A DNA stretch of 63,603 nucleotides, filler included, from Collodictyon triciliatum (taxonomy: Eukaryota): assembly GCA_043381765.1 (NCBI GenBank). It is 4 parts of 4 records of this genome, joined end to end, with 100 filler letters (N's around TTAATTAATTAA, not from the genome) between each part and the next. Parts side by side here need not be neighbours in the genome. Positions count along the whole stretch, not along the records: positions 15,015 to 29,914 come from JBHJMP010001757.1; 3 more parts are not named here. One strand, written 5' to 3'. Below are positions 16,064 to 63,138 of this stretch, piece by piece. Made by a program: the position numbers and the translations under genes. Numbering within the stretch: the stretch's first letter is position 1; each line of letters opens with the position of its first letter. The notes below the pieces were generated by a model, which was given only the letters and a program-made list of their open reading frames with translations, made no database searches and was not told the DNA's origin.

Positions 16064-18862
16064 ATGAACTTTCGACTCTTCGCTGCCACCTTTGCAGCGC
16101 TGTACATCGTCTTCCTGGCCTTCCCCGTCGCCGTGAAGTCCGAAGAAGCCAGTGAGCATCCAAACACACAATCACAACCTCCTTGATCCCTCCCCTTATT
16201 CACTCCTTCCTCACGAGCGATCCCAGTTTCACGGAACCAAAAGCCGTCTTCAATCGAGCACAACACGCGACCTTCTGTCCTTACACAGTTTATTCCTCGC
16301 ACATAGTCGGCTCCGTCATCGGTATTGATCTGGGAACCACATACTCGTGTGTTGGTGTCTTCAAGAACGGACGCGTGGAGATTATCGCCAACGACCAAGG
16401 AAACCGTATTACCCCCTCATATGTGGCCTTCACAGAGACCGAGCGTCTGATCGGCGACGCCGCAAAGAACCAGGCCACCGTCAACCCCACAAATACCGTC
16501 TTCGACATCAAGCGCCTGATCGGTCGCAAGTGAGTCTCCCACCTGCCTGGCAGTAACTCCCCTTATTCTCCAGCGCTGCCTTCTAAGCAGCCACATATCC
16601 GGCACCACAAACCATGTGACCCTACGACATAAGAAACCATGACTTAACCGTATGCGGCCTCGTCAGGTTCACTGATCAGGACGTCCAGCGCGACATGAAG
16701 CTCCTGCCATACAAGATCATCAACAAGGAGGGAAAGCCCTACGTCTCTGTCATTGTCAAGGGACAAGAGAAGATCTTCTCGCCCGAGGAAATCTCAGCCA
16801 TGATCCTTGTGAAGATGAAGGAAACCGCCGAAGCCTACCTTGGCAAGACCATCAAGAACGCCGTCGTCACCGTCCCGGCCTACTTCAATGATGCCCAGCG
16901 CCAAGCAACAAAGGACGCAGGCACAATCTCCGGCCTCAACGTTCTCCGCATCATCAACGAGCCCACGGCCGCTGCCATTGCATACGGTCTGGACAAGAAG
17001 GACGGCGAGAAGAACATCCTTGTTTTCGACCTTGGAGGAGGAACGTTCGATGTCTCCATTCTCAGGTATCAACCCCGCTTCTCTGAGCGACAGTTCCCTA
17101 ATTACGCCCTCATCATTCACATTGACATAAACCCAGAGCTGACATTAAAACCTCACACTCACATATCGATATGCAGCATTGACGACGGAGTCTTTGAAGT
17201 CTTGGCCACCAACGGCGACACCCACTTGGGAGGTGAAGACTTTGACCAACGCATCATGCAGCACTTCCTTGGCATCTTCAAGAAGAAAACCGGAAAGGAC
17301 GCATCAGTTGACAAGAAGGCGCTTCAGAAGCTCCGACGCGAAGCCGAGAAGGCCAAGCGCGCTCTGTCGTCTATCCACCAGACCAGAATTGAGATCGAGT
17401 CCTTCTTCGATGGCCAGGACTTCTCTGAAACCCTGACCCGCGCCAAGTTCGAGGAGCTCAATCTGGACCTCTTCAAGAAGACACTCACTCCCGTCGAGAA
17501 CGTCCTCCGCGACGCCAAGCTGTCCAAGTCTGAGATTGATGAAGTCGTCCTTGTTGGCGGCTCCACTCGTATTCCCAAAGTTCAGCAGCTACTTAAGGAC
17601 TACTTCGACGGAAAGGAGCCCAACAAGGTAAATTAGTCTCAATTATAAGCCTAATCTCCTATCACACGGAACTTGTACCCTAAAAATGCCCGGCATAATC
17701 GAATGCTTCTTACCGAGACACAGTCACCACTCTGTTAACCCGTTTACTCGTGACATGCGTGCAGGGAGTCAACCCCGACGAAGCTGTCGCCTTCGGTGCA
17801 GCTGTCCAGGGCGGTGTTCTGAGCGGCGAGGAATCCACCAAGGAGGTCGTCCTTCTGGACCGCACACCCCTGACCCTCGGCATTGAGACTGCCGGCGGCG
17901 TCATGACCAAGCTCATCTCCCGCAACACGCCCGTCCCCACAAAGAAGTCCGAGGTCTTCTCCACATACCAGGATAACCAGGACCGCGTCCTCATCCAGGT
18001 CTTTGAAGGAGAGCGCTCCATGACCAAGGACAACCACCTCCTCGGCAAGTTCGAGCTCACTGGCATTGCTCCGGCCCCACGCGGCGTGCCCCAGATCGGT
18101 AAGCAGCGCCACCGAGATGCATGTCCTCTCACTCGCCTGTGTCCATGCACCGCTTCTTGATGTCGAATATTTATTGGTATCAACATACATTCGACATCAC
18201 TTCTCATCTTCAATTTGCAGAGGTCACCTTTGCCATCGATGTCAACGGCATCCTCAGCGTCTCCGCCACTGACAAGGGCTCCGGAAAGTCCGAGTCTGTC
18301 ACCATCACCAACGACAAGGGCCGCCTCAGCGAGGAGGACATCCAGCGCATGGTCGAGGAGGCCGAGAAGTACGCCGAGGATGACCGCAAGGCCCGCGAGA
18401 GAGTCGAAGGTATTTTCCTCCCTAGACATATCCACACTTCCCAACCCCCTATCGCAAGCAACAAAAAGAGAAGGCGATAGATTCACCAGCCTAGCCTCTC
18501 TTCAGTAACGAACAAACTGGGGCTCCCGTGTCTACCTCTGCGAGCCAACCACACTTCCCTACTCACACACACGCACGCACACAGCAAAGAACGGGCTCGA
18601 GTCGTACATCTTCCAGGTGCGCTCCACCCTGAGCGACGACAAGTACAAGGACAAGATCGACTCGGACGACCGCCGTGAGGTTGAGGACGCACTCAGCGCC
18701 GCGTCCCAGTGGGTCGACAGCAACGCCACCGCCGACAAGGACGAGTTTGACGAGAAGCGCAAGGAGCTCGAGCAGGTTGTCTCCCCCATCATGAGCAAGA
18801 TTCACCAGGCCGCCGGCGCATCCTCCGGCGACAGCGGCGATGACTACCACGACGAGTTGTAA
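16064..18862 (+). CDS. HSPA5: ER Hsp70 chaperone BiP/GRP78, 7 exons
   Basis: Signal peptide exon [29 protein letters not shown], then [52 protein letters not shown] and C-terminal HDEL* ER-retention signal. Confidence 0.97.
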
Positions 18863-20006
18863 ATCCCTCCGGCAGTTTTGTGATTCATAAACACCTCTCT
18901 CTTTCTATCACCTCCACGAAACTATGTCCATCCCCCTTCCTCCCTCCATTTTGTGAGTTTCCAGAACAAAATAAATAAACGCCTAAGACTTCAACACCCC
19001 AATGTGGAAAATAGAAGATTCCAAATCAATCCTGCCTATCTTAATCAAATCGAGAGCAAAAGGAAGAGGCACAGGTTTTGGTAGCAGGGCATCAGATATG
19101 CGGCAGACGTTCAAGTCACAGGCACACCGCAAGGGCTCCGTGATGGAAGCGGCGGGTTCGCGGATGCACCTGCGAGGATTAGAGTACGCCCTTGGCTGAT
19201 GGCTCGTGTGCTCTTCCGCTTTGGTTACCTATGGGTAGCAACTCAGCTGCTTAACACAAGATTTCTAGTGTCATCCACGAAAAATGTACAAAGTCTGGCG
19301 CATTTGAGTGGCGTGGATATTAGAATATCATTCACCCGGCTACCTTCACACGATGTGAATATGAATACGTTTTTTTTCAGAATAAATCGAGAAATAGCTT
19401 CGCCCTTGTTTTAATTGTCAAGCGTAACCATGTAGATAAATGAGTCCCTGGTCGCTGGTTTGTTGCGTCACACTAATGTTCTCTGAGGCTCTACCAAACT
19501 TGCCATATAATGGGCTCGCAATGGAGATATAGCATCTCTATCTTGCTCAGGTCAATTAGTGATTATACTATTATTTCGTGCAAACCCCTTTTACCAGGAA
19601 AGGCACGAAAGATAATGGTATGTGATATACGATTGGTCCTTGGTGTCCAGCGTACACCTTTCGTCCATCAAAGCTCTCGAAAACACGGATTTATCATTAT
19701 CGTTATTGCTATCGTTTCAAAAAGGGCAAACCCAATGCCGCCCTAAAAGATTGAAACACCAGGGTTCTTTACTTCTTGGTAGATGCCTTGGCTTAACTTA
19801 TGGATTGTGGGTTGGCAGCTCATCGACTATCTCACATCTCACATATATGATACCTAACAGATTATCCACCAAGGCACGGAAGGAACAGGACACGACGGCC
19901 TTCCCGACGAATCTGCTTTATTGTTCGTGGTGGATCATTCGCCAAAACAGAACGCAAAAATTAGGGGTATCCAAACCACAGCGCACATGGCTGCACAAAA
20001 CTGCGC

Positions 20007-20110
20007 GAAAAAAGAAAAAGAAAAAGAAAAAGAAAAAGAAAAAGAAAAAGAAAAAGAAAAAGAAAAAGAAAAAGAAAAAGAAAAAGAAAAAGAAAAAGAA
20101 AAAGAAAAGA
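20007..20110. repeat. (GAAAAA)n microsatellite upstream of the VWA-arrestin gene
   Basis: Directly visible. Confidence 0.9.
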
Positions 20111-20233
20111 AAAAGAAAAGAAAAAAGAAAAAAGAACAAAAAGAAGAAGAAAAAGAACAAAAAGAAAAAAGGAAGTTTTTGATATTATATGAACACTCAG
20201 CTTAACCCAGACAAACCCCACAGGCAGCTACCT

Positions 20234-23200: not shown

Positions 23201-26200
23201 GACCCGATTTACGGGAGAAAAATACCATCTGTTTCATTTTCCCAACAATTCCAACGAGGCAAGCAGGGTAACGCAAGGTCTGATGTCGTAAAAAACTCGA
23301 CCCGCACAAACTCAAGCCCTAGTGTCATTCTATCAGAAAGATTCAAGAAATTGTCCGCAAGGAAAGATTCTCATGGGACCCAGTTTCGACCTGGTGAAAT
23401 CGAGGCAAATATACAACATTTTTCACATGACTTTTGTACTATCGAATTACTTTGAGCTATATTCTCATATATTTTGGGTCTTCATTGACCATTGACGTGC
23501 CACATACTCAGTTTGACGTGTACATAAGAGACGTCTCACATTTGATTGTATTCTTCAATATTGCCAATCAAACCTTGACTTTGATTTCGGATGCAGGTGA
23601 TGCCCAGACTAGCCGTAGTTGACATGTCGGCCTTTATTCAACATGGCACGCCCACCGAATTTTCCCAAGAAAATTATGTTGTTCTTACTACTCATGACCC
23701 GGGAAATAAAGTATCGATAGAGTTGGATTCAAGTCAGATACACGCTGGTCAATTTGCAACAGGAAAATTGAAAGTTTGACTCTTTTTTTTTTTTTTTTTT
23801 TTTATGTTTTTTCCACTCATAAAAATATGGTTTTGATAAGGCTCTATAAATAGAAATATACATATTCGAATAACTGCTTACCATATAACAATCACATATT
23901 CATTTCCATGTTACTTTTGTGGATAGATATCGTTTGTCAATTGCTTCTTCGTCAATCGGATAATTGTCGAACTCAGAGGATCACAAAAAGTTGAAATAAA
24001 GGGGTTTGTTTACTTTTTTTTAAAAAAAAAATAAGCAGAATAAAAGGAGTGCAATTTTACTTCAAATCCTTAAAAGTGTATTGTGATTCAATATTTACAT
24101 GCGTTTTATATAAATAAAATAGGAAACAAAGTAACACGGTTCAGACGAAGGAAAAGTCGAAGGATAGTTTGATATTTTTTTCACAAGAAACTATTCTATC
24201 CTCCAAAGGGGCATACTATACCCCTGGCACGCGCTATCTTCATTTCTCATCCTTTGTGCCTGTGGAAATGCCATGTGGGTTTAGATATGATTTAACCATT
24301 TCATTTTTTTTATCATAAAACGTTAGTAAACCCTTCTTTCAAACGAATAGAACTTAGAAAAATCAACTGAAAATACATTTTCTTATGATTACTGCATAGC
24401 TTCTTTTTCTATGACCAACATAAAGACATCAAGCTATCCTTCAGGACTCACTGCGCGAGTATGCTTCCTGAATACTCATTTTCTTATAAGGGCCCATAGA
24501 CGCGCTACCTTCTGTTTCTGTCTGATATACGTTCATCCATGTTGAAAACATCAATTCATCCAGGATATACTCAAATTATCTTCATTTTATAAGGTGACTT
24601 ACAAGTTTATTGCCCGGGTCGAAATGGCCATTAATTATTCGTTGACTACAAAAACTAACATACGGGTTCATCAAATACCTAAGCCACCGAAGGTCATAGA
24701 AGGTTTGCATTAATAAAATAATCAAAATGGGTCTGCATCTATGCTCACACATAAGAAATTTGAACATCATGCCCATGCACTGGCTGCTTACAAATGATGG
24801 CCACTATCCTAGGCGAAGTTTCTTCTCGCAGTCTTAATCGCATGTATATGAAAGCTTCCATGGATAAGGTTAAAATTGAAACAATTGCTTTGGTGATGAA
24901 ATCAAAAATTGTGATATTTTAAAAGAGAGTAAGAAGGAAAATGTAATAATAAAAAAAGGCTCCATTTTGATGGATATGGGTTGAAATCTGATATTCTCCT
25001 GAACAGCATCTATATGTCCCGGGAGAACAGGCTCTTTTGAAGTGCGAATTTAACAACTTATCAACAGCTGATATTAGAGCATGGAAGGTAAAAATAACAA
25101 CTTGACTGACACTCTTATCATAATTGCCGATGAAAAATTGCAATTTTCGAATATAACCCTCCAGAATCTCTTATCTGCCCACCAATATTAGCTTATCCTG
25201 AAGGCTCATCAGATTTATACCCAATTCTATTGTATTTTTTATTTTATTTTTTCACAAGTAGTTACCAATCCTAGGTGTCGCTTATCGAGTCCCTGGAATT
25301 GAAATTCGAGGGGCAAAAAATAGTCAATTCCATTCATTTATTTCAAGAAGCTTTTGAGGGATTTGTTCAATTTTATTATGGACAAAGGTAGTATTTCAGT
25401 GGGGTGATATTCGCTCATTTTGCAATTATACAAACAAAAACAAGGGCTTACCTCCCTTTTACATAATTGATTGGCGATGATTTGAGATGTCTCGCTGTTT
25501 AAAAAAAAAATAATCAAATACGACAACTTGATTAAAAAAAAATAATCCAATGAAGCACATCTTGAATTACCTTTTGTAACTAATTGCATGGTTGTAAATT
25601 ACATACACTAGAATTTTCCCGTTTGCAATACCACTATCGATTTTGCCATCGATTGCAACAGAGCTAATTCAGAATAAATATCACCTTCGCATCGAAGCAG
25701 AGTCGAGCTTCGGTCAAAGCCTTGGTCAGAACTGCCTTGCCATACGCTCGACTATTCCTATTTTGCACTCATTTTCTTTAAACTGTTTAATTATTTTTTT
25801 TTAAAAAAAAATAAAGAGGAGTTCTAAAAATATAATAAAATGTAAGCACTGTACAACAATCACTTATTCCATTCTTTCTTAACTATGAACGGGTGTTTGC
25901 AGACATCACGCTTCCTCTCTACATCGGCCATTCCGAAGCCAGCGACGCGCCTTCCTCGAAGCTGCCGATGAGGGCATTGGAGATTCTGCACCGACCAAAG
26001 TGGCAGAACGAAGGCCAAACGTCGATCTGTGCTGTGTGCCAGGAGCAGTTTGGAATGCTGCAGTATGTCCACACCGCTTCTCTCGCGCTTTCTCAGACCC
26101 TTCTATTCCTCGTAATCATGTGTCTCCCACATCATAATCCACTTACACTCGGCCCAAAGGAGAAAACACCATTGTCGGTACTGCGGGAACGTCGTTTGCT

Positions 26201-26346
26201 CGGCGTGCAGCCGTTCCGAAATCCCGCTCCCCCAGCTCGGATTTACGGACGCCGTCCGGATTTGCGACAGGTGCGTCGTCCGGGCGAAGGAGGGAGAAAT
26301 GGGATTTCACACGCCCAGTCGCTATCTGGAACACATAGGCAGCTAA
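20234..26346 (+). CDS. Multidomain protein: DUF4476-like helical region + VWA + linker + arrestin-N/C + FYVE (one gene, or two if a premature-stop acceptor is used near 23600)
   Basis: VWA MIDAS-like IIIDCSESM (~21130) and a C-terminal ...YHTGGTF. Arrestin-like segments KVSIELDSSQIHAGQFATGKLK, YVPGEQALLKCEFNNLS and FPFAIPLSILPSIATELIQNKYHLRIE. FYVE WQNE..C..C...RKHHCRYCG..VC..CS...RICDRC. TAA at 26344-26346. Confidence 0.62.
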
Positions 26347-26864
26347 ACAGGATTGCAAAGCACCGTGAAGGTCTCTGCTCTGCTCTTACTACCGCCAACA
26401 TCACCATCGCCATCACTACCGCCATCTTTATCATCACCACTTCCGTCATCTTTATCATCATTATCGCCGTATCTCGTGAACGCATATCGTTGCCCTAAAA
26501 GTCTCCTCCCTATAAAGCATATATATATTCAAACCTGGTTGTGTATTATTCATGCATAAATTTCCTCAATCATTTATTATTTTTTTGAAGAAGAATAATA
26601 ACTCGACGCTTCCTTCTATCGCGTAAGTGTGATTTAAATACGAAGAGTAGAGTTCTCATAAGGTGTCAAAATATTAACGCTTTTTGTTTCTGTTTTTGTT
26701 TTTGTTTTTGTTTGTTCTTTCGTAGTTGTGCTGGGAAAGCCTCTACCAAGGTTATTGGGATATTGAGGGGGTTTAGATGCTGTCGTTTAAAGTAGAGATG
26801 CAGGAAATAATGCGCGATGGTAAAGTCTATCAAACTTGCACAAAAGAATATATAAGGCGAATGC

Positions 26865-27483
26865 CTAGGCGACCATAGATAGCGTTGAGAAGCAGCGGTC
26901 GCACACACGCGATGGAGGGTCCAGAAATGTAAGTGCAAACTTATTTGAAGAGCACGCGTGGCAGAATATAAGCCCGCATTTCCGACAATGGTGCTATGCG
27001 AAAAGAGAAACGAAAATAATTTAAGTCACAGTGAACCGTGGCCCATGAATATCAATCATCACAGGATAAGGAGAAATGCATAGATAAAGTATTCAAATAT
27101 CAGGCTGTAGGAAAGGGCACGGCGTGACCATTGTCTCTTCTTTTATTTATTTATTTATTTATTTCGCAACTGATGTAATATTTATGTTGTAGACCCATGA
27201 ATATGGAAAATATATAAATTTTGTGTTTCTGTTTCTATTTCTGTTTTTGTTTACCCGCCGAAGTAGAAGAGTAAACGGGGCCTGACAACTCGCACAAACA
27301 CTAACAGCATCATCAGGAACCCACTCTCGAGCCTGGCCAGCTGCTGCTCGTGATGTGGGCATAACTGCATATGAGAACTGACAAGAATCATACTTTCCCT
27401 GTGTTATTTTTTTTTTTGATTAAAAAGGATATGTATCAAGAAATTGTCACAAGCAACAACAAAAGAAAATTGAGCGGGGGACA

Positions 27484-27582
<99 letters not shown>

Positions 27583-30014
27583 TGTAGAAAAAAAAGGAAA
27601 TGAAGGAAATAAAATCTGATGTCAGTATTAAAGATATGAAAGCTACATCATCAGACAAATAATCGTCCTCTTCTACAGGGATTTTCGAGACAACAATCGA
27701 TGACTGCGATAGCACGGGCAACATTGGTGTTGCAATTGGCACGTCTGTTTGGTTCAAGGACCATTTTCGAACGCTGTCTACAAAGACAAGAACACTATCA
27801 GGGTCGACTTCAGGATGCAAGCCCTGACCAAGGTTGGCAATAAACCCTTTGGAGCCAAAATTATCCAACATGCGGAAAACCTTATGAATTATGCGTTAAG
27901 CATCGAAGAAGAAAAAATCAGCACATGACCACATCATCAAAATAGTAGCCATATCATAGACAATAAAAGACAATAGTTTCGTGCACTAAGAATAAGAGAC
28001 CGAAATATGTTGGGATCAACTGGAGTAAGCAACCATGAATGTAAAAAGAAAGGGCAGAAATACTAGGAAATGCGACAAGACATGCAATATATAGTGTGTC
28101 TCATTTTGAAGAAATCATGTAAAATCACCTCTCTCTGAATTCCCTCTGGGCCAGCAAAGAGAACGCAAGGGTCGAGATTTCCTTGTAATGCAACACGGTC
28201 GCCGACCATCTGTAGAGCAGCTTTCGGGTCGACGGACCAGTCCACTGAAAGGACATTAAATCCCGTCCGTGACATAACATCTAGGGAGCAGAATGTGTTT
28301 TTTGTGTACAGAATCAAAGGGATATCTGGGAAGCTCTGACGAGAAGGAAAAAAAGAAAAAGAAAAAGAAAATTAGGGATTTAATACTTAACTCCGCTAGT
28401 GGTGAATGATTTAGATTTTTTTAAAAAATTTTTATCATATGTCATTTTAGCGCTTAAAATTACATAAACCGTGTTTGATCTAAAGACAAAGACAAAGACA
28501 AAGACAAAGACAAAGACAAAGACAAAGACAAAGACAAAGACAAAGACAAAGACAAAGACAAAGACAAAGACAAAGACAAAGACAAAGCTAAATATGATGT
28601 ATCTGTAAAGTTTACGTCTCTAAGCTTTCGGGATATCTGACGAAGATATGAGAATCCAAACAATTCGTGAAGATGTGGAGATATCTCACCCAAGTAATAG
28701 TCCATTACCTGAATTACCTATAATGCCATCGTGAGTGGTCGGCAAGATAATCTTCAAGGGATCTGGATTGGCCCTGAATGTATAACACAAATATACACCC
28801 TTACCTGTGCTCCAGAGTTAAGTTGAAGCAGGGCAAAGTCGATAATAACTTCAGTTAGTTTCTGCAACAAGAAATGACAGGAAGTTGGATACCGGTACAT
28901 CCATCTCTTTGCCTTCTTTAAGACACGGTTCCCTCGCCCCTCGATCATGTAACAAAAAAGAGTAAAAGGGCCACCAAGCAAACCTATTCGTATTTTTAAT
29001 AGAGAAAAACAGCAGAAGAATCACAATAATGATACGTATTGTGTAATGTAGAAAAACGATATAATCAGGTGATCTTTTTGTATCAGGTTGCAGATTTTAA
29101 AGTTTATTGTTTTATAAAAGAAACAAACCTATGAGTGGGACATCACCACATAGCTTCCTTCTGGATAATGTTATGGTTTCCAACACAGGATTGACACACG
29201 GTAGAAGTGATGGTGCAGGGAGACTTTGAATATCCCGAGGAGTATCAATTGGGTTGAAAACTTTTACACCTACAAGTAAAGTATATGATAAATCTTGTTT
29301 AATCGCAGAATTTTAGCACCTAATATCGAATTAGCTCTGTCTTCATGTCTTATAATGAAGCATATGAATAATATTGGATCTCAAGAAGAGTTTGGCCCAA
29401 GTGAATGTATAATTTGACATGAATCAGCCAAAGCTAAGGGTGATTTGTGAGTTTAAAAATATATCTTCTATAGAAATATAAAGGCAATGAGGGAGTGGAA
29501 ACCTGCTCGTGGATCCATCCCGACCCGCAAGTGAAAAGCCTGAAGCGGAACAAGTACGTCGGTAAAGAGAATTGCTGCATCAAAGCCAAACTTGCGAACA
29601 GGAAGTACTGTGCAATCGGAGGCTAAGTCCGGTTCACAGCAGACCTTTTTGTGTAACTCTCAGTATGGTTGCAATCGAAACACACTAACTTGCAGTTGGA
29701 AAGAGAACGTAACGTATGTCAAGTGCAGACGAGCGGGACAAAAAATAAAAAAAAACCAAAAATGAAAAATGAAAAAGAAAGAGAAAAAAAAAGAGAAAAA
29801 AAAAGAGAAAAAAAAAGAGAAAAGAGAGAGAAAAGAGAGAGAAAAGAGAGAGAAAAGAGAGAGAAAAGAGAGAGAAAAGAGAGAGAAAAGAGAGAGAAAA
29901 GAGAGAGAAAAGAGNNNNNNNNNNNNNNNNNNNNNNNNNNNNNNNNNNNNNNNNNNNNTTAATTAATTAANNNNNNNNNNNNNNNNNNNNNNNNNNNNNN
30001 NNNNNNNNNNNNNN

Positions 30015-30049
<35 letters not shown>

Positions 30050-30545
30050 AAAAAAAAGACAAAAAAAAACAAAAAAAAACAAAAAAAAAAAAGGCTAATG
30101 AGAAAAGGAGAATAAAAATCTAGCAAGAGAGAAGACATTTAAGACTGAAAACTCACGGATATAGTTCCTCGCTCACCAAGGACATATCGTGTTCCACCAA
30201 GTTAGAGAGGAGCACAATATCTTTTCTTCTTCGTCAAGTATATAGAGGAGAGAATGTGGTGTACGAAATCGTTTCTTTCTTTAAGAAAAAATCTCCCAAA
30301 GAAAAGGAAAGTGATAAACACGAATGCCCACCAAAACAAAACAAAAAAGTACAGGCGCGTAGTGCTACAAAATGGGTAGTGGCATAACGATTGAAAAGAT
30401 AAAGAACTCACCCAACCGTCAAGAGGTTAACTAGAGAGTGTCGTGTATTTGCAGTGCTGGCACCTTCACTTCTGGAGCGGATCGGCCTCATGACAAACGA
30501 GTCCATCATATTTATATCGATCAGCTCCAAGGCACTGGGATCCAT
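26865..30545 (-). CDS. Uroporphyrinogen decarboxylase-like protein with C-terminal FYVE zinc finger
   Basis: UROD-like segments FDAAILFTDVLV, VPLIGLLGGPFTLFCYMIEG, LSVDW, LQGNLDPCVLFA and FIANLGQGLHP. Exons 27880-27647 (234 nt), 27377-27255 (123 nt) and 26993-26865 (129 nt) join in phase 0 to give WVPD...RRHHCRKCG...RVCDRC. The first two exons (30545-30412, 30228-30177) lie across the linker and are less certain. Confidence 0.8.
28481..28586. repeat. (AAAGAC)n intronic microsatellite
   Basis: Directly visible. Confidence 0.95.
29915..30014. other. Assembly linker (N44-TTAATTAATTAA-N44), apparently inside an intron of the UROD-like gene
   Basis: Same linker structure, with purine-rich low-complexity sequence on both sides. 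Confidence 0.95.
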
Positions 30546-39693: not shown

Positions 39694-40133
39694 CCTGGAT
39701 CTTTGCGAAGTTTCTCTGCAGCTGCCTTGCCTTCAACCTAGCTCCTTTTCCAGTTAATCTCGTTTGCGCATCGGATTCGCAATGATCACTCCTCCCCCTT
39801 CCCTGCCAAGCCGATTCTGCAGAGCTAAGTGCCGCACAGCAGAAGTGATGCAGTTGGTTTTGCAGGTAAAGAAAAGAGCTTAATTCCACAACTGGCACGA
39901 GCAACGGAATTTCTATATTACCTATTAGATATATGCGGTATAAGATTTACACTTTGATAACCACAAAATTGCAATATATACGACTTTAATTATTAATTAT
40001 CAATTTTTCCGTATAAGTAATTTTTAATATAGTATGGTTACGACGCTCAAAAATAGTTGTGCTGTGCTTGCCCTTGTCTTTGGCAGCTTGACAGCTTGCT
40101 TTATTCTTGTCCCCAACCAGAAAGGCTGTGCTG

Positions 40134-50791: not shown

Positions 50792-63138
<12,347 letters not shown>

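Follow-up and report, generated by a model that had tools for sequence, protein, structure and literature searches.

Does Collodictyon triciliatum encode a single protein in which a uroporphyrinogen decarboxylase (UROD) barrel is joined to a FYVE finger, and if it does, is that barrel still an enzyme of haem synthesis? The question is raised by a minus-strand gene at positions 29644-26865 of the 63,603-nucleotide stretch of this genome that we analysed (GenBank assembly GCA_043381765.1, four parts joined end to end; hereafter the window), in the part that comes from record JBHJMP010001757.1. In haem synthesis, UROD is regarded as a soluble cytosolic enzyme that stands alone, and an initial annotation of the window had proposed that here it is fused in frame to an intact FYVE finger and thereby tethered to endosomes or phagosomes. 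We find it close to certain that the locus is a single nuclear gene with a spliced message, encoding a UROD-fold (beta/alpha)8 barrel, a flexible linker and a FYVE finger in that order. Judging from its sequence, we further think it probable that the product is a UROD-derived and presumably dimeric barrel, with its decarboxylase chemistry altered or lost, that is held by its FYVE fingers on membranes carrying phosphatidylinositol 3-phosphate (PI3P).

The gene has eight exons in our model, its 5' end being lost in an assembly gap, and its open frames (about 29650-26865) are separated by AT-rich, microsatellite-rich introns. Five of the first six frames match the Pfam URO-D family (PF01208) collinearly over profile positions 43-346, each with 24.3-69.5 bits against a cut-off of 23.9. 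Exon junctions were chosen with an orthologue from Diphylleia rotans, P0121, as a guide, such that introns were GT..AG or GC..AG, the frame was kept and similarity was maximised; all introns of the resulting model are GT..AG. Evidence for splicing comes from assembled contigs of public runs, five of which were found to share a small part of the window's words; the contigs were aligned to 26700-28470, and they thus bear on the junctions of exons 5-8. The features of the gene are listed below in the order of transcription, with residues in human UROD numbering and the runs named X1 and X3.

29503-29644, minus strand: first UROD exon in the window (…VCCEPDLASDC…FGFDAAILFTDVLV…, with the D86 equivalent); URO-D profile 43-92, tblastn match to P0121 residues 51-101, donor 29503|GT.
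29646-29645, minus strand: AG from which the 5' boundary of this exon was inferred; the model entry reads 29647(29644)-29503.
29129-29269, minus strand: UROD exon 2; URO-D profile 83-142, GT..AG model.
28805-28983, minus strand: UROD exon 3 (…FCYMIEGRG…, with the Y164 equivalent); URO-D profile 140-201, E 3.3e-19, and the model.
28616-28717, minus strand: UROD exon 4 (VIQVMDYYLGEI…, in which the S219 equivalent is Y); no Pfam match alone, tblastn match to P0121 145-239 spanning exons 3 and 4, the model and the comparison of active-site positions.
28129-28335, minus strand: UROD exon 5 (…ALQGNLDPCVLF…); URO-D profile 235-305, X1 contig joint from 28129 to 27880.
27647-27880, minus strand: last UROD exon (…IANLGQGLHP…, in which the H339 equivalent is Q; …FVDSVRKWS) and the start of the linker; URO-D profile 301-346, donor GAT|GTAGCT at 27647/27646, X1 record 5.
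27399-27646, minus strand: phase-0 GT..AG intron of 248 nt between the UROD and FYVE parts; X1 joint 27397/27646 (cut +1), CT..AC on the plus strand, depth 11.6.
27255-27398, minus strand: exon encoding the conserved linker motif GKYDSCQFSYAVMPT and then the N-terminal half of the finger (WVPDD, CASC, …LLLRR); FYVE profile 1-25, tblastn match to P0121 385-430 beginning exactly at 27398, X1 records 1 and 5.
26994-27254, minus strand: phase-0 GT..AG intron of 261 nt that cuts the FYVE finger at RR|HHCRKCG; joint 26993/27255 in X1 (939-nt contig, side 144) and X3 (side 28).
26865-26993, minus strand: last exon, with the second half of the FYVE finger (HHCRKCG, CHAC, RVCDRC) and the TAG stop at 26865-26867; FYVE profile 25-66, E 5.9e-12, 46.0 bits against a cut-off of 27.8.
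26724-26864, minus strand: 3' untranslated region (UTR), into which the spliced 3' UTR of a convergent plus-strand gene extends; X1 record 1.

The last UROD exon continues for 42 residues past …RKWS, about 35 of them variable linker, and ends in …EEDDYLSDD; the whole linker between barrel and finger is about 55 residues long and holds a short conserved acidic and aromatic motif. Reading through the intron at 27399-27646, which contains an (AAT)n microsatellite of 96 bases (27485-27580), leads to a stop in frame at 27578-27580. Every peptide that the initial annotation had quoted for this region (…FVDSVRKWS, …PVEEDDYLSDD, WVPDD, RRHHCRKCG and RVCDRC), as well as the TAG stop, is present, and the two introns that it had drawn through the linker and the finger are indeed phase 0 and GT..AG.

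Spliced contigs carry the single-gene reading. The X1 contigs match the window at about 99% identity and cross all three 3' introns with joints that fall precisely at the GT..AG sites; these appear as CT..AC ends on the plus strand. One joint lies at 28129|27880 (27878/28127, cut +2). The joint 27647|27398, which links the UROD part to the FYVE exon, is found in a 92-nt contig (record 5, with 29 letters on its short side and a depth of 11.6), and the joint 27255|26993 is found in a 939-nt contig (record 1) and repeated by a contig of run X3. The metatranscriptome runs X2 and X4 yielded no contigs aligned on 26700-28470 and are uninformative either way. Record 1 covers 26724-26993 and continues into 26339-26368 across a plus-strand GT..AG intron (26371-26725); because it thus crosses into the convergent neighbour, it merges two overlapping convergent transcripts and is not one mRNA. 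The initial annotation had placed the two junctions at 27647/27377 and 27255/26993. The second of these agrees with both runs, as does the donor of the first with X1, whereas its acceptor has to be moved: the exon starts at 27398 (AG at 27400-27399), which adds GKYDSCQ in frame, since an X1 contig joins 27647 to 27398 and the D. rotans orthologue reads …SDDGKFDSCTFSYAVMP… across the same junction.

The finger that is reached in this way is complete. The FYVE family profile (PF01363) matches in two successive frames, positions 1-25 at 27162-27419 (22.8 bits, below the cut-off of 27.8 when taken alone) and positions 25-66 at 26868-26993 in the last exon, so an intron falls inside the finger at RR|HHCRKCG. 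In the spliced model, it has eight cysteines in four CxxC pairs together with WVPDD, RRHHCRKCG and RVCDRC. FYVE fingers that bind PI3P are defined by WxxD, R(R/K)HHCR and RVC together with eight zinc-binding cysteines. The finger of P0121 (72.9 bits with Pfam) aligns over its full length, residue for residue, with those of EEA1 (1joc, 1hyi) and RUFY1 (E 4e-15 to 5e-18). The predicted window protein thus carries a complete, canonical C-terminal FYVE finger of the PI3P-binding type, with every signature motif that the initial annotation had listed.

Independent support for the fusion comes from relatives. When the last UROD exon and the linker were used as a query, one longer protein was retrieved, an open reading frame (ORF) of D. 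rotans (P0001) that is 64% identical and carries both PF01363 and PF01208. The fuller version of this protein is P0121 (EukProt EP00002, P025202), an unannotated Trinity ORF of 474 residues with URO-D at 12-348 (321.8 bits, profile 2-346) and FYVE at 409-471. Our window model matches residues 51-474 of P0121 at 328 of 426 positions (77%). The peptide across the joint, DDGK(Y/F)DSC.FSYAVMPT, is conserved between the two species, which supports both the fusion and the acceptor at 27398 independently of the contigs. Identity differs between regions: 249 of 299 positions in the UROD part, 13 of 38 in the variable linker, 14 of 20 in the linker motif and 52 of 70 in the finger. As its identity is the highest of these, the barrel is the most constrained part of the protein. 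P0001 itself (P025203, isoform i2, 375 residues) starts at an internal methionine that corresponds to the start of the window's second exon and lacks the first 99 barrel residues and with them the D86 equivalent; either an incomplete assembly or a genuine short isoform could account for it.

We searched P0121 against 1.84 billion representative proteins with phmmer and inspected the best 150 of 19,758 matches. Nine of these 150 had two matched stretches, and when all nine were run against Pfam, two were found to have a FYVE finger (P0122 and P0123); in all, 20 representatives were tested in this way, and the same two have FYVE. Among the matches listed, the clusters with both URO-D and FYVE are therefore P0001/P0121, P0122 and P0123. 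A profile built from three fused proteins and run against 5.8 billion proteins gave 3910 matches, and among the best 120 the same picture emerged, with three clusters that have both domains at 694-876 bits and all others at 410 bits or less. P0122 is a second paralogue from D. rotans (EP00002, P037730; 548 residues) with an N-terminal extension of 60 residues, and P0123 is a Logan-contig protein of 517 residues. They are 50% and 43% identical to P0121, respectively, and their linkers are longer and unrelated. In a careful IQ-TREE analysis of 42 rows and 377 columns, the four fused proteins form one clade (100/99) on a stem of 0.56 changes per site, in which the window protein groups with P0121 (100/97), with P0122 as sister to the two (100/99). 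The long branches call for caution in reading this tree; the shared FYVE finger and a shared deletion in a barrel loop, described below, are independent characters that define the same clade. Together, these comparisons show a UROD-FYVE architecture that at least two diphyllatean-type species have conserved, with a duplicate in D. rotans, and that is present in P0123 as well. The search for URO-D and FYVE in one protein that the initial annotation had suggested gives three unannotated clusters among the matches listed, and the gene of the window is not an isolated case.

The barrel is not that of a standard UROD: several of its substrate-binding residues are lost. The best solved relative of P0121 is human UROD (1r3q; E 1.6e-82, 281 bits). 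We compared the fused proteins at individual sites with 354 stand-alone URODs of 320-480 residues, among which the sites are occupied as follows.

R41: R in 348 of 354.
R50: R or K in 341 of 354.
S219: S or T in 352 of 354.
H339: H in 336 of 354.
D86: D in 354 of 354.
Y164: Y in 334 of 354.

R41, R/K50, S/T219 and H339 are all kept in 328 of the 354, and P0121, P0122 and P0123 have lost all four. In P0121, G40-R41-Y42 is deleted and R50, S219, H220 and H339 are replaced by H, F, Y and Q; across the fused proteins, where the sites are covered, the same three residues are deleted, position 50 is H, C or S, position 219 is F or Y, and position 339 is Q or G. The window protein has Y at 219 and Q at 339. 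At the same time, D86 and Y164 are kept in the window, R37, D86 and Y164 are kept in P0121, P0122 and P0123, and the cleft-lining motifs DAAI-F-D-L and QGNLDP, together with R37, Q38, D86 and Y164, are invariant in all fused members that cover them. Passages of one paper on UROD (PMC3510221) describe R37, R41 and H339 as substrate-binding and D86, Y164 and S219 as binding or catalytic. The pocket of the fused proteins would have lost three positive side chains and gained one aromatic residue. Losses at three or four of R41, R50, S219 and H339 are also seen in three stand-alone UROD-like proteins (P0166, P0148 and P0253), none of which has the loop deletion that marks the fused proteins; degenerate URODs may have arisen several times.

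Structure predictions are compatible with a folded barrel that pairs. AlphaFold2, given P0121 with 60 aligned sequences, returned a confident barrel (mean predicted local distance difference test score (pLDDT) 84.6 and predicted template modelling score 0.75 for the whole protein), a linker with pLDDT below 50 at 360-385 and 392-403, and a finger at 55-80. When residues 1-352 were modelled as a homodimer, the score was 0.77, with 0.00 for the best control, at least 95% contact agreement between runs and a partner pLDDT of at least 89. Of 30 proteins solved as one-chain pairs, 21 reach the mark that this model passes, and of 23 solved as single chains none does; because dimers of human UROD have been solved, the pass may reflect those known structures or show likeness only.

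On this basis, we infer the PI3P binding, dimerisation, ligand and cellular role of the fused protein as follows. The barrel would dimerise as UROD does, and the dimer would present two FYVE fingers whose avidity could hold it on the cytosolic side of endosomes or phagosomes with PI3P-rich membranes. With four carboxylate-binding residues lost, the pocket would no longer suit the eight-carboxylate substrate; remodelled and less cationic, it may bind, and perhaps still modify, some tetrapyrrole of lower acidity than uroporphyrinogen III, or else the barrel might serve as a non-catalytic binding module. Either way, the protein would not act as a housekeeping enzyme of the haem pathway, and the losses at R41, R/K50, S/T219 and H339 fit the tetrapyrrole-binding barrel of the initial annotation better than a working haem enzyme. 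A more specific version, which takes up the sensing or salvage of prey porphyrin that the initial annotation had suggested, would have the dimer, in algae-eating diphyllateans, capture or modify prey-derived tetrapyrroles as they leave PI3P-positive phagosomes; this would serve haem or porphyrin salvage or the handling of phototoxic chlorophyll breakdown products. The four lost residues would suit a ligand less acidic than uroporphyrinogen, and passages of a paper that does not mention Diphyllatea (PMC6775998) describe how algivorous protists turn chlorophylls into cyclopheophorbide enols within phagosomes. We regard this version as a long shot.

Several observations weigh against the reading of a membrane-held barrel with altered chemistry, and they have to be set against other explanations, beginning with the existence of the fusion itself. 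The label of run X1 as 'RNA?' is a guess, and this also qualifies its support for the splicing that the initial annotation had suggested be checked in transcripts, where X1 contigs span both junctions, the first at 27398 and not at 27377. The same run contains a 133-nt contig (record 4; depth 12.8 vs 11.6 for record 5) that spans 27369-27708 of the window and joins 27679 to 27473. It keeps 27399-27473 of the intron, lacks two bases of an A run near 27407 and runs into the FYVE exon; in the UROD frame it reads …SKILNFLLLLLVTIS and then stops before the finger. Together with an in-frame ATG at 27362-27360 (MPTSR…), just inside the FYVE-bearing exon, this contig would suit a UROD-like gene that ends at 27578 and a separate small FYVE gene, the two being joined by read-through or an assembly artefact. 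A UROD part that ends before the finger, with the FYVE exons transcribed separately, is what the initial annotation had named as evidence against a fusion, and record 4 does stop there, yet it runs on from the UROD exon into the FYVE exon, across a joint that lacks GT..AG ends. We considered record 4 as an alternative splice form, but the joint shows no GT..AG, AT..AC or GC..AG ends in either register; the contig could be a 205-bp deletion allele, a template-switch artefact or an odd minor isoform. Two separate genes are also hard to reconcile with the GT..AG joint 27647|27398, with the junction peptide conserved in D. rotans and with the same architecture in three other proteins. The two-gene explanation is thus largely refuted, and we give it hardly any credence; the in-frame fusion that was first proposed is borne out on spliced contigs and conserved in another species.

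If the fusion is accepted, the fused protein might still be a working housekeeping UROD, in which the finger merely places or regulates a normal step of haem synthesis. In its favour, human UROD is the best solved relative, the residues most often called catalytic (D86, Y164 and R37) are intact, the barrel is the most conserved part, and P0121, with a score of 304.5, lies marginally above the cut-off of the hemE equivalog TIGR01464 (302.95). The matches listed include no canonical UROD from D. rotans or from the window organism, in searches that were not targeted at one. R37, R41 and R50 are read from relatives only, as the window lacks the N-terminal exon or exons. The divergence of the fused proteins is high without being unique: they mismatch 16-18 of 77 conserved columns, where stand-alone URODs mismatch 3 at the median, 14 at the 95th percentile and 26 at most, and at least three of the four sites are likewise missing from 3 of the 354 stand-alone URODs. 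Against a housekeeping role stand the deletion of R41 and the replacement of R/K50, S/T219 and H339 wherever these are covered. The three fused relatives also score lower with URO-D (271-322 bits) than most of 17 stand-alone representatives (274-460 bits, 14 of them above 340), the clade sits on a long stem, and the two paralogues of D. rotans look like a family with a role of its own. We therefore consider a housekeeping enzyme unlikely, while giving it a real chance. The opposite extreme, a dead pseudoenzyme that binds no tetrapyrrole and whose barrel is a dimerising scaffold or a protein-binding module of an endosomal FYVE adaptor, would agree with the four losses, with an aromatic residue at 219 that could fill the pocket and with the dimer model, whose pass may reflect the solved UROD dimers. 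On their own, FYVE fingers generally depend on avidity for retention on membranes, which such a scaffold would provide. The invariance of D86, Y164, R37, Q38, DAAI-F-D-L and QGNLDP would be unexpected if the pocket were unused, and we rate this explanation as improbable. We thus continue to favour a barrel of altered or lost decarboxylase chemistry that is held on PI3P membranes.

Set beside known systems, the fused proteins are familiar in their parts and unusual in their combination. The D. rotans proteins P0121 and P0001 share with the window the order URO-D, linker and FYVE, the junction peptide and the active-site changes, and P0121 has in addition the N-terminal 50 residues; P0122 and P0123 share the architecture, the clade and the loss of R41, R/K50, S/T219 and H339 with P0121 and differ in their linkers. 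Canonical cytosolic UROD (human, PDB 1URO and 1R3Q; HemE, TIGR01464) has the same fold along the whole barrel and the same D86, Y164 and R37, but it is a stand-alone protein with an RQAGRY loop, R50, S219, H339 and no membrane-targeting domain, and the fused clade differs in all of these. The finger resembles those of the endosomal proteins EEA1, RUFY1, Hrs/Vps27 and ZFYVE16 over its full length, in all PI3P-signature residues and in its eight cysteines; in those proteins, the finger is joined to coiled coils or to RUN, VHS or UIM modules and not to the barrel of a metabolic enzyme. UROD can fuse to other domains, as is seen in UROD-porphobilinogen deaminase (P0125 and P0149), HemD-UROD (P0131) and UROD-Ras (P0126), of which the first three join UROD to another enzyme of the haem pathway; none of the four has FYVE, and all have URO-D at 349-460 bits. 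P0125 comes from the choanoflagellate Barroeca monosierra, and P0126 comes from a chytrid record and may be a gene-model artefact.

The initial annotation had known of no described UROD-FYVE protein, and our literature searches surfaced none. The papers found on uroporphyrinogen decarboxylase together with FYVE were, judged by their titles, omics or clinical studies; FYVE does not occur among the papers listed for Collodictyon and Diphylleia; and the papers listed on D. rotans and haem deal mostly, by title or abstract, with mitochondria, their genomes or cytochrome c maturation, none of them with haem synthesis. In public data, the fused proteins are present as unannotated ORFs only. While both domains are textbook material, their combination and the clade-wide remodelled active site are thus undescribed as far as our searches reach. 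They define a conserved, expressed clade in the deep-branching and little-studied CRuMs/Diphyllatea, in which a UROD fold with remodelled substrate-binding residues is joined to a finger that targets phosphoinositides, and they make a candidate for the neofunctionalisation of a core haem enzyme, either as a pseudoenzyme or with a new tetrapyrrole activity. The idea that phagotrophs might deal with the tetrapyrroles of their prey at the surface of the phagosome becomes testable. Since their scores lie barely above the hemE equivalog threshold, the fused proteins would be labelled ordinary URODs by automatic annotation, and such mis-annotation could mask a missing or different step of the haem pathway.

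The 5' end of the gene lies beyond the sequence that we could use. Upstream of 29650 there is just low-complexity intron sequence, followed by the gap.

29915-30014, no strand: assembly gap, two N runs around TTAATTAATTAA; seen in the sequence.

The 12-mer TTAATTAATTAA between the N runs has stops in all frames and looks like an artificial contig join, so the sequence upstream may be non-contiguous with the UROD-FYVE gene. About 50 N-terminal residues (URO-D profile 1-42), among them the RQ… substrate loop, are encoded by one or more exons that the window lacks: tblastn with P0121 residues 1-50 gave no credible match in it. We took a single match at 39884-39913 (E 8.8) as chance, and we rejected an ATG at 30185-30183 (MSLVSEELYP, then GT) as the start of the gene, as it is unlike the N-terminus of the orthologue. 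Introns and flanks hold microsatellites at 27485-27580, 28482-28587, 29780-29914 and 30015-30090, which comprise the 96-base (AAT)n run, about 100 bases of (GTCTTT)n, CT-rich repeats and poly-T.

The convergent plus-strand gene downstream (25960-26346) also ends in a FYVE finger (…CAVCQEQF…RKHHCRYCG…RICDRC, with a TAA stop at 26344-26346). According to X1, its 3' UTR contains the intron at 26371-26725 and then overlaps the 3' UTR of the UROD-FYVE gene. We considered this neighbour as the donor of the finger by local duplication and found no support for it: the two fingers are 49% identical over 39 columns, and the codon and phase of their FYVE introns differ. Elsewhere in the window, an HSP70 exon (16623-17636, plus strand, E 4e-128) lies in a GC-richer stretch at 15-21 kb, and an NAD-GH match opposite the HSP70 region is probably an antisense artefact. 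Other nuclear genes in the window include one with an Afi1-like docking domain and a protein-kinase fragment, among the spans 19619-20182 (plus strand) and 51305-51829 (minus strand).

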